Assembly: GCF_003334815.1 (NCBI RefSeq) | Contig: NZ_QOWO01000057.1 | Reading direction: 5' to 3' (one strand) | Length of the DNA: 13,444 nt | Source of the DNA: Escherichia coli | GTDB taxonomy: Bacteria > Pseudomonadota > Gammaproteobacteria > Enterobacterales > Enterobacteriaceae | Shown: positions 899-1,490 of the stretch, piece after piece | Position numbering within the stretch: the first letter of the stretch is position 1 | Layout of the letters: every line of letters starts with the position of its first letter | Translations under genes and position numbers: made by a program | Notes under the pieces: generated by a model | Database searches by the model: none | Seen by the model: the letters and a program-made list of their open reading frames with translations, nothing else | What the model was told of the DNA's origin: nothing

Positions 899-1490
899 AA
901 TAGTTACCTTTTATGAGTATTTCACTGATGTTTAGAAAAATAGATAAATTTTTCTGTAGTAAAATGAGAAGTAAACAAATGACATGCATGTTTCTGTTGT
1001 AGTGATATCAACTCTACACGGTGATATTAAAGGGTAGGAAACACTCTAAAGTATCAAAAAACGCTCATTTGAAATTATTTTCATGCAATTTAAAAGCATA
1101 TCTTATTACTAATTGGAATTTGATGTTGCTATATTGATGTCTATATTAATAATGCCTGTGAATGGTATTTTTGATGTATTTGATATGTTATCAATTTATA
1201 TTATTTACAAACTAATTGTTTCAAATAATACATGGCTGATTATGCGGAAATAAATAATTTCACACCGGAATTAAGTAGCGGTGGTGACAAGTATTTTCAT
1301 CTACGTAACTATTCGGAATATTCAGAATATACTAGCGGTTTTTTTTTGAGTTTGATGATTTTTATCAAATCATGACTTTTTTCCTGAAAAGTCAGTAGAT
1401 ATTCATAGGCAAGTAAGGTTTTATACTTTGCTGACAGGATTCAGGCCTGTCTCAGACTGACATGGATGTAATGAACAAAAGGGAATGGCT
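899..1490. promoter_or_regulatory. Long AT-rich divergent intergenic region between yjiC and idlP-iraD; presumed promoter/regulatory region
   Basis: 592 bp with no ORF of note, visibly AT-rich with A/T runs; contains TTGAT(G/A)T direct repeats at 1120-1186 and two adjacent 7-bp inverted repeats at 1355-1393. No promoter elements were mapped. Confidence 0.4.

Follow-up and report, generated by a model that had tools for sequence, protein, structure and literature searches.

The direct repeats and palindromes upstream of iraD are best read as pieces of two mapped ytiC-ytiD-idlP-iraD promoters (P1 and P2) in an AT-rich, H-NS-bound island, where they would represent P1 parts, an FNR box and an A/T tract; we give this reading a probability of about 0.7. 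IraD is a stabiliser of RpoS, the stress sigma factor, and acts after DNA damage and at stationary-phase entry; the iraD promoters are therefore of real interest. The control region is ordinary and largely documented, and most of the findings were already known; what the analysis contributes is a map, not a discovery, of which motifs coincide with the −35 and −10 elements of P1, with the ytiC start and with the FNR site of Myers et al. Modest leads come out of it as well: a possible anaerobic input into RpoS stabilisation through class I FNR control, which H-NS would mask, a candidate element in the conserved A/T tract at −60 to −41 of P2, and an excess of TTGAT words around the most AZT-induced promoter of the genome.

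The locus within the window (the whole 13,444-nucleotide stretch of E. coli DNA analysed) is yjiC-ytiC-ytiD-idlP-iraD according to the annotation of identical E. coli loci, which places the motifs upstream of idlP-iraD, as the earlier note had it. Its warning about AT-richness was equally well founded, the GC content being 26–30% across 900–1400 and 32% over the whole yjiC-iraD intergenic region, whose length is that of the iraD upstream region described by Sass et al. (672 bp). The numbering of the literature was mapped onto the window and checked with the published DnaA box "−81" and, a second time, with the mutagenic primers of Sass et al., which flank exactly TATATT (P1) and TATACT (P2). 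The features are collected in Table 1.

Table 1. Features of the yjiC-iraD intergenic region, in window coordinates.
Feature	Position	Strand	Basis or remark
yjiC-iraD intergenic region, 672 bp	899–1570	+	the literature's iraD upstream region; H-NS-bound "promoter island"
TTGATRT copy 1 (TTGATGT), containing the P1 −35 hexamer TTGATG (1120–1125)	1120–1126	+	consensus scan; −35 assigned from spacing
TTGATRT copy 2 (TTGATGT)	1134–1140	+	P1 spacer, directly 5' of the −10; polymorphic
P1 −10 TATATT	1142–1147	+	hexamer replaced in Sass et al. to kill P1
P1 AT-rich discriminator AATAAT	1148–1153	+	between −10 and TSS
ytiC small ORF	1152–1253	+	RefSeq annotation; 33-aa form from 1152, 22-aa form from 1185
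P1 TSS	1154	+	published TSS −417
TTGATRT copy 3 (TTGATGT)	1171–1177	+	+18 to +24 of the P1 transcript, ytiC 5' leader
Perfect 15-bp palindrome TTGATAtgtTATCAA (6-3-6)	1180–1194	.	TTGATRT copy 4 as left arm; ytiC ATG (1185) inside
ytiC/ORF23 short form	1185–1253	+	ATG at 1185; annotated
ytiD (ORF47)	1232–1375	+	annotation; TGA stop 1373–1375
HusR (YnfL) box CAGAATATACTAGCGG	1323–1338	.	predicted by the HusR gSELEX authors
IR1 ATGATTT-ttatc-AAATCAT	1355–1373	.	inverted-repeat scan
Near-consensus FNR box aTGAT-TTTT-ATCAA, ATGATTTTTATCAA	1355–1368	.	consensus scan 9/10; predicted in Myers 2013
IR2 (T)GACTTTT-ttcctg-AAAAGTC(A)	1373–1394	.	about −61 to −40 of P2; T-tract/A-tract palindrome
IR2 core CTTTTTTCCTGAAAAG	1376–1391	.	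C1376-TTTT ... AAAA-G1391
AAAAGTCAGTAGATATTC	1387–1404	+	IR2 right arm and P2 −35 zone; top-conserved non-coding block upstream of P2
P2 −10 TATACT	1422–1427	+	hexamer replaced by an EagI site in Sass et al.
P2 TSS	1434	+	published TSS −137
DnaA box "−81", TTTTCCATA	1490–1498	−	published; anchor of the coordinate map

The yjiC(−)/iraD(+) spacer is listed as 4554354_526 in the published promoter-island table (Panyukov & Ozoline) with the H-NS mark "K", which corresponds to about 909–1435 of the window, and it has the AT-richness, the dense promoter-like signals and the H-NS expected of such islands. It resembles them in binding H-NS, in its low GC content, in containing lineage-restricted DNA and in its many words of the TTGAT type, but most promoter islands yield little full-length RNA, whereas this one has two productive, regulated promoters. 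Two small genes that the earlier note missed, ytiC and ytiD, overlap the motif region. The 33-aa protein of ytiC has been seen by tagging, an ORF23-lacZ fusion is expressed, ORF23 is translated, and ytiC is the top AZT-induced gene in the genome (260-fold, LexA-independent). The ORF47-lacZ fusion is expressed too; the last codons and the stop of ytiD overlap IR1 and the IR1/IR2 junction, and the ytiD ORF shows no conservation outside E. coli.

All six motifs lie where the earlier note put them, as judged by reading the sequence and by pattern search: four TTGATRT copies on the plus strand, the last of them TTGATAT (1180–1186), and two inverted repeats, the second of which (1374–1393) grows in an inverted-repeat scan to 8-bp arms (TGACTTTT/AAAAGTCA). 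They are commoner than composition alone predicts. Against dinucleotide-preserving shuffles of the 672-bp intergenic region, a null that is lenient for real AT-rich intergenic DNA and was applied in tests devised post hoc with the pattern already seen, only one of 2000 shuffles packed four copies of some 7-mer, allowing one R/Y position and no overlap, into 67 bp, and TTGAT/ATCAA pentamers were observed 10 times in the intergenic region (3.8 ± 1.9 expected, P = 0.004), with P of about 0.006 for an abutting pair of inverted repeats and P = 0.046 for at least three perfect inverted repeats of at least 7 bp. Across the window, TTGATRT was observed 12 times (4.2 ± 2.1 expected). What had been described as one cluster is actually made of two unrelated promoter regions that differ in evolutionary age.

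The assignment of P1 follows from the coordinate map, the primers and an independent consensus scan, which picks TTGATG-16 bp-TATATT with 9 of 12 positions matching. The −35 hexamer TTGATG agrees with TTGACA at 4 of 6 positions and lies 16 bp from the −10, within the usual 16–18 bp. The primers of Sass et al. swap exactly the −10 hexamer for an ApaI site, which eliminates P1, and the published TSS falls 7 nt after 1147, inside the 5–9 nt expected. Copy 1 thus sits 16 bp 5' of the experimentally defined −10 of iraD P1 (Merrikh/Lovett, Park/Babitzke). Of the four copies it is alone in having a demonstrated job, the −35 role, which is assigned from the spacing; copy 2 is spacer, and copies 3 and 4 are leader and start codon of ytiC. 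The latter two are transcribed (+18 to +33 of the P1 mRNA), and the P1 transcriptional fusion −547 to −413 (1024–1158) is active without them. The AT-rich discriminator of P1 fits the positive ppGpp control reported for it. TTGAT resembles both a −35 element and an FNR half-site, and it may merely be over-represented in AT-rich DNA; describing copies 2–4 as just AT-rich words may nevertheless undersell them, since a four-copy cluster is rarer than composition predicts. The 15-bp palindrome TTGATAtgtTATCAA was overlooked by the earlier note.

Conservation separates the two promoters. In the genome collections searched, which contained no Shigella, the TTGATRT copies lie inside a yjiC-bearing indel of about 1.4 kb that E. 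coli and E. albertii alone carry. E. albertii has kept yjiC, conserves none of the four copies and lacks the P1 −10, and in four other Escherichia lineages uxuR runs straight to the equivalent of window position 1292–1307 or so. These four lineages without P1 retain the P2 palindrome block. Of 4894 matching E. coli genomes, 4846 (99%) carry the 1345–1405 block with 100% identity, and among 11 diverse strains there were no variable sites in 1345–1578 vs 32 in 899–1344. Judging by these comparisons, P1 and the repeats came with the yjiC-bearing indel, and P2 with its upstream FNR-box/A-T-tract module, the older of the two regions, is genus-wide and almost invariant in E. coli. Phylogenetic footprinting, the check that had been proposed for the motifs, thus went against the TTGATRT repeats and the symmetry of IR1, and its support was limited to TGA and TCAA as cores in IR1 and to the CTTTT/AAAAG core in IR2.

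The idea that the motifs are regulator binding sites does best for IR1, which overlaps a published near-consensus FNR site that is FNR-occupied in vivo without H-NS/StpA, and fails, as worded, for the direct repeats, which comprise a −35 hexamer, a polymorphic copy and transcribed leader, with irregular spacing and no conservation. A version of it for P1 would make the TTGATRT copies and TTGATAtgtTATCAA an operator array for a specific regulator (an AZT-induction factor or HusR), extending over the −35 and past the TSS and repressing or activating the promoter. The excess of the repeats and pentamers over shuffles speaks for such an array, as does TTGATAtgtTATCAA itself, a 10/10 match to TTGAT-N5-ATCAA that was equalled in 10 of 3000 shuffles, but its N5 spacing is wrong for FNR. 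The AZT induction of ytiC exceeds that of every other gene in the genome, DnaA and SspA account for only part of the control of ytiC, DnaA ChIP-seq has no peak at iraD, and the HusR gSELEX peak at 4,554,598 falls at about window position 1153, that is, on P1 (with the U00096.2 offset derived here) and 170 bp from the box of its authors. Copies 1, 3 and 4 are invariant among the 11 strains, but one variable site in 67 motif positions vs 3.7 expected is not significant. Against the array, copy 2 reads TTGAGGT in K-12, the strain in which P1 regulation has been characterised; the same G1138 appears in the K-12 primer of Sass et al. and in 4 of the 11 sampled strains, and over 1110–1166 the window sequence is matched exactly by only about half of 4840 genomes (2412 identical, 2428 with 1–2 mismatches). 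The copies start 14, 37 and 9 bp apart, with no helical phasing, they are unconserved in E. albertii, and the segment is missing from four lineages. Iterons and OmpR/PhoB-type direct-repeat operators also have several same-strand 7-mer copies near a promoter, but unlike these the TTGATRT copies lack helically phased spacing and cross-species conservation, and one of them is polymorphic. We know of no cognate protein for TTGATRT repeats. We consider an operator array unlikely, and it is quite doubtful that the copies and TTGATAtgtTATCAA, which straddle the P1 start, are the operator behind the LexA-independent replication-stress induction of ytiC and iraD P1; HusR is a candidate there for the reason that its gSELEX peak appears to map on P1 and not on the authors' box.

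A different origin of the two TTGATGT pairs, a segmental duplication of about 50 bp, was rejected (alignment score 17 vs a shuffle mean of 15.8, 670 of 2000 shuffles scoring as high), and TRF found no tandem repeat at the pairs. The 271 bp upstream of the paralogue yjfZ carry no TTGATRT array, with one minus-strand copy only. An unrelated 18-mer is shared with that yjfZ upstream region.

Returning to the promoter reading, P2 (for which the fusion 1317–1438 has been used as promoter reporter) is where IR1 finds its most probable role. The near-consensus FNR box overlaps the left arm, the loop and the start of the right arm of IR1, its dyad centre (1361.5) being offset by 2.5 bp from that of the 7-5-7 palindrome (1364). 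It matches TTGAT-N4-ATCAA at 9 of 10 positions, a level also reached in about 11% of shuffles of the intergenic region, and its centre lies at −72.5 from the P2 TSS. FNR activates from −41.5 or, in class I promoters, from near −61.5, −71.5 or −82.5, and the box is therefore at a class I position. The identical 14-mer appears under yjiC/iraD among the FNR sites predicted by Myers et al. (Table S6), where it has a PatSer score of 12.49 (above the authors' threshold) and H-NS cover. In the same work the FNR ChIP-seq peak at yjiC/iraD is absent in wild type, and it is the hns/stpA double mutant alone that shows a significant FNR ChIP-chip peak (0.136 to 0.656, Table S7); about iraD and FNR the authors only cite "prior studies". 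A sigma70 ChIP-seq peak at 4554880 (about window position 1435, P2) increases 4-fold anaerobically, from 96.6 to 382.5, and iraD mRNA is 3.7-fold higher under anaerobic conditions. P2 thus resembles class I FNR-dependent promoters in its 9/10 box at −72.5, in its FNR binding without H-NS/StpA and in the anaerobic rise of P2 sigma70 and iraD mRNA, but differs from them in having no wild-type FNR ChIP peak. The box overlapped by IR1 would then be silent under H-NS and occupied by FNR once H-NS/StpA are removed, and it could add to anaerobic P2 activity, which makes it a candidate contributor to the anaerobic rise in sigma70 occupancy of P2 and in iraD mRNA. TGA (1356–1358) and TCAA (1365–1368) do not vary in six Escherichia lineages, unlike the distal right arm of IR1, IR1 being a perfect palindrome in E. 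coli only; with 46% of the local columns invariant, however, invariance at 7 of 10 FNR consensus positions is no significant excess.

The six lineages show little or no variation in the core of IR2 (C1376-TTTT ... AAAA-G1391), and the other lineages have CTTTTTAaaTAAAAAG on the same centre. Per-column identity is 0.98 in the right arm of IR2, 0.88 in 1394–1405 and 0.44 in the next spacer. A conserved T6 followed by A4 at −57 to −44 of P2, between an activator-type site and the −35 zone, is what IR2 shares with UP elements and A-tract docking DNA for alpha-CTD, but its register is 3–5 bp off. The UP-element consensus spans −59 to −38 (NNAAAWWTWTTTTNNAAAANNN), and 1375–1396 (ACTTTTTTCCTGAAAAGTCAGT) agrees with it at about 5 of 15 specified positions, as counted manually. 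The most tentative part of the promoter reading is that IR2, lying between the FNR box and the P2 −35 zone, might act as A/T-rich docking or bendable DNA for alpha-CTD and/or H-NS and not as a specific dimer operator.

One could also suppose that, the P1 −35 apart, all of this is coincidence due to composition, AT-rich, H-NS-bound, horizontally acquired DNA generating short repeats and A/T palindromes without any sequence-specific function. The low GC content of 900–1400 would favour this, together with the frequency of 9/10 FNR matches in shuffles, the weak excess of inverted repeats (only P = 0.046 for at least three), the unsupported duplication, the lack of covariation and the number of promoter-like −35/−10 pairs, which are not enriched (4 found vs 4.1 expected from shuffles). 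However, the palindrome block is near-invariant in about 4900 E. coli genomes, its cores are conserved genus-wide and the adjoining spacer columns are not, the region has FNR bound in vivo when both hns and stpA are mutated, and a repeat cluster like the one observed was met in a single shuffle, all of which leaves coincidence a rather improbable account.

It is highly improbable that IR1 and IR2 act as RNA, as paired hairpins at the ytiD stop tuning the P1-derived idlP-iraD mRNA (by processing, stability or ribosome pausing): a 49-nt segment does form two hairpins (−13.2 kcal/mol, z −3.7, none of 200 shuffles as stable), IR2 alone gives a 9-bp stem (−8.4 kcal/mol, z −4.65) and has the ytiD UGA at its base, but IR1 by itself folds weakly (−3.6 kcal/mol, z −0.8), no pair of the IR1/IR2 helices changed on both sides across the six lineages, where 69% of the IR1 cells are paired and the 74% of paired cells equals the shuffle mean, four lineages without P1 conserve the block all the same, and mutating the ORF47 start to a stop, which abolishes its translation, left iraD expression unchanged. 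The compensatory changes of a conserved structured RNA were thus absent from IR1 and IR2. With only 2 G-C pairs in its stem and GUAGAUAUUC after it, IR2 is unlike the G+C-rich stem and U-run of an intrinsic terminator, and 850–1650 contains no terminator-like site. Rfam gave no family match, only a sub-threshold snoRNA chance match outside the motifs.

Other regulators were scanned for with consensus sequences. Within the six motifs there was no DnaA box (TTWTNCACA, at least 7 of 8 specified positions), the only hits being TTATTTACA at 1201–1209, which matches at 7/8, and the −81 box already known. The CRP, LexA and ArcA consensus scans gave no match, NrdR gave only 11/16 matches, all outside the motifs, and a Fur match (13/19 at 1348–1366) was taken as background since an equal 13/19 occurs inside idlP. 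The predicted HusR box coincides with none of the six motifs. An IHF-like 8/9 match was seen at 1363–1375.

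Most of the repeat and palindrome cluster upstream of iraD turns out to be promoter anatomy that is already documented, with a small remainder: a local surplus of TTGAT words near P1 and a conserved A/T tract at P2 (P1 and P2 being the two mapped iraD promoters). The gene map was taken from annotated loci identical or near-identical to the window. Segment 899–1484 (586 bp) has matches of 95–100% identity in 4,904 of 5,426 complete E. coli genomes, and the yjiC/iraD spacer figures in a published list of H-NS-bound "promoter islands". The four TTGAT(G/A)T copies of the earlier note and its two 7-bp inverted repeats (IR1 and IR2) are all present at the positions it gave, and an inverted-repeat scan extended the IR2 arms to 8 bp (1373–1394).

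Genes and repeat elements of the region (window coordinates)
Feature	Coordinates	Strand	Source
yjiC	68–898	minus	annotation
TTGATRT copy 1	1120–1126		sequence
TTGATRT copy 2	1134–1140		sequence
ytiC	1152 or 1185 to 1253		annotation
TTGATRT copy 3	1171–1177		sequence
TTGATRT copy 4	1180–1186		sequence
ytiD	1232–1375		annotation
IR1	1355–1373		sequence
IR2	1374–1393		sequence
idlP	1491–1574		annotation
iraD	1571–1963		annotation
hypT, iadA	after iraD		annotation

In dinucleotide-preserving shuffles of the 32%-GC intergenic region, designed after the pattern had been seen, any degenerate 7-mer with four copies within 67 bp appeared once in 2000, a pair of abutting perfect inverted repeats, each of at least 7 bp, in 0.6%, and three or more perfect inverted repeats of at least 7 bp in 4.6%. 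TTGAT/ATCAA pentamers numbered 10 in this region, with 3.8 ± 1.9 expected. The motif pattern somewhat exceeds what composition gives.

Literature positions, numbered from the iraD ATG, were converted as −N = window 1571−N. This map agrees with the DnaA box at −81, TTTTCCATA, which is the reverse complement of 1490–1498, and with the mutagenic primers of Sass et al., which changed the P1 −10 (TATATT) into an ApaI site and the P2 −10 (TATACT) into an EagI site and abut 1142–1147 and 1422–1427 exactly. The published start sites at −417 and −137 correspond to 1154 (P1) and 1434 (P2), each 7 nt past its own −10. On this map the four copies fall in and around P1. Judging from spacing, copy 1 would be the −35 hexamer; a blind consensus scan independently picked TTGATG (1120–1125), a 16-bp spacer and the same TATATT. 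Copy 2 sits in the spacer and copies 3 and 4 at +18 to +33 of the transcript, copy 4 including the ATG (1185) of the translated ORF23/ytiC and forming the left arm of a perfect palindrome, TTGATAtgtTATCAA (1180–1194). The P1 transcriptional fusion of Park et al. spans 1024–1158, without copies 3 and 4. Of all E. coli genes, ytiC, which is transcribed from P1, shows the strongest induction by AZT, a replication-stress inducer (260-fold, LexA-independent). The mapped P1 start (G1154) is the last base of the ATG (1152–1154) from which the 33-aa YtiC form is annotated; this form could arise from P1 only if the true start lay 2 nt upstream, giving a leaderless mRNA, and otherwise the product is the 22-aa form from 1185 (ORF23 of Park et al.).

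Repression by DnaA has been proposed to act via the −81 box, and DnaA ChIP-seq found no binding at this region. The regulator HusR (YnfL) binds the region in vitro, its authors predicting a box at 1323–1338. A derived U00096.2-to-window offset of +4,553,445, which puts the published FNR site at 1355 and a sigma70 peak at 1435 exactly, places the HusR gSELEX peak (4,554,598) at ~1153, the P1 start, 170 bp upstream of that box. These published sites coincide with neither copies 2–4 nor IR2.

Both palindromes fall in the P2 fusion fragment (1317–1438), and IR1 spans the final ytiD codons, the stop TGA being 1373–1375. Within IR1, ATGATTTTTATCAA (1355–1368) is the best intergenic match to the FNR consensus TTGAT-N4-ATCAA (9 of 10 positions), a score reached in ~11% of shuffles and unremarkable by sequence alone; its half-site cores are the invariant TGA and TCAA. 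Counted from the P2 start, the site centre (1361.5) is at −72.5, where class I activators sit at CRP/FNR promoters. The exact 14-mer is among the 187 predicted FNR sites of Myers et al. (2013), labelled "yjiC/iraD" (PatSer score 12.49). In their wild type the site is H-NS-covered and has no FNR ChIP-seq peak, and only the hns/stpA double mutant gave an FNR ChIP-chip peak at yjiC/iraD (0.136 to 0.656); they name iraD among five "silent" sites for which earlier work had pointed to FNR regulation. Anaerobically, iraD mRNA rose 3.7-fold and the sigma70 ChIP-seq peak at 4554880, window ~1435 and thus the P2 start by our offset, from 96.6 to 382.5 (Myers et al., 2013). It is this published occupancy together with the conserved cores, not the consensus match alone, that makes the case for an FNR box at IR1. 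The suggestion of regulator binding sites in the earlier note is partly supported: it holds for IR1 and possibly IR2, and fails for an array made up of the direct repeats.

Scanning with IraD, one genome for each species, yielded five further Escherichia lineages (E. albertii, E. whittamii and three more). In four of them uxuR is followed by ~150 bp and then by window homology beginning only at ~1292–1307, with yjiC, P1, the TTGATRT cluster, ytiC and the 5' half of ytiD absent. The ~1.4 kb between about −72 and ~1300 is therefore an AT-rich indel common to E. coli and E. albertii only. E. albertii aligns there at ~72%, with none of the four copies, the P1 −10 or the ytiC ATG conserved. The indel boundary lies inside ytiD, so this ORF crosses a junction between an older and a younger stretch of DNA; among the lineages compared, only E. 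coli keeps it as an ORF. Past ~1300 all six lineages align. In this footprinting, which the earlier note had advised, IR1 is perfectly palindromic in E. coli alone, with TGA (1356–1358) and TCAAA (1365–1369) invariant, and the C-TTTT...AAAA-G core of IR2 shows little or no change, CTTTTTAaaTAAAAAG sharing its centre in four lineages. Upstream of the P2 −10, non-coding conservation is highest in AAAAGTCAGTAGATATTC (1387–1404), which comprises the IR2 right arm and the next 11 nt. Neither helix showed compensatory changes among the six lineages, and the paired fraction equalled the shuffle mean.

Within E. coli, G at 1138 makes copy 2 TTGAGGT in K-12 (as in the K-12-derived primer) and occurs in 4 of 11 diverse strains; 1110–1166 is identical to the window in 2,412 of 4,840 genomes and has 1–2 base differences in 2,428. 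Segment 1345–1405, with IR1 and IR2, is 100% identical in 4,846 of 4,894. The 11 strains have 32 variable sites within 899–1344 and none within 1345–1578. The ytiD start (1232–1234) is ATA, not ATG, in at least three and probably four of them (direct reads for L012–L014, where RefSeq still annotates ytiD; the alignment column alone for L015), which suggests weak or no selection on YtiD.

IR2, which spans −60 to −41 of P2, consists of a T6 and an A4 tract between the FNR box and the −35 zone and is conserved by invariance only. A terminator was rejected, as no terminator-like site was found in 850–1650. Once transcribed, IR2 would fold into a hairpin of 9 bp (−8.4 kcal/mol, z −4.65), a reading disfavoured by its conservation in lineages without P1 to transcribe it. 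Manual comparison with the UP-element consensus gave no fit in register. On these grounds we favour a DNA-level part in P2 architecture, where IR2 might contact alpha-CTD and/or H-NS.

Directly 5' of the predicted HusR box, about −124 to −104 from P2, lies a 9-bp tandem repeat (TATTCRGAA x2.3; 1310–1330), in frame in ytiD (YSEYSEY); it includes a palindrome, TATTCGGAATA, kept in all six lineages, E. albertii having one unit fewer. The 5' extremity of the P2 transcript carries the inverted repeat GACAGG-attcagg-CCTGTC (1433–1451); its loop region contains a GGA, and it is probably BS1, the weak CsrA site of Park et al. In strain WEM25 an IS1 with a 9-bp target duplication, GACAGGATT (1433–1441), parts both promoters from idlP-iraD, and in strain 2018-18.25PC IS1 copies replace everything upstream of 1446, yjiC, P1 and P2 included. 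The two events are independent (1433–1446), and the P2 start may be an IS1 hot spot.

The window itself begins with an IS1 terminus (1–76, ending ...ATCAGTAAGTTGGCAGCATCACC), matching the IS1 copy in WEM25. Its junction (76|77) falls inside the yjiC 3' end, so that the ORF of this strain reads on to 56 and encodes 280 aa with a changed C-terminus, versus the annotated 276. Adjoining the yjiC start is a perfect 8-bp inverted repeat, AGAAAAAT-agataa-ATTTTTCT (934–955), within which TAGATAAATT (941–950) matches 9 of 10 positions of the H-NS high-affinity motif, TCGATAAATT. The 18-mer TATCAAAAAACGCTCATT (1052–1069), ~155–170 bp upstream of yjiC, recurs at 17 of 18 positions and in the same orientation ~130–145 bp upstream of yjfZ, a DUF2686 paralogue (7550–7567 of MG1655 locus L019); the longest block in this spacer that is fully identical between E. 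coli and E. albertii is its core, AAAAAACGCTCATTT, and the element may be a regulatory or promoter element common to both genes. Finally, a 605-bp contig labelled Bacillus coahuilensis m4-4 (NZ_ABFU01000118.1) encodes IraD with 97% identity to E. coli and is almost certainly a contaminant from E. coli in this Bacillus assembly.
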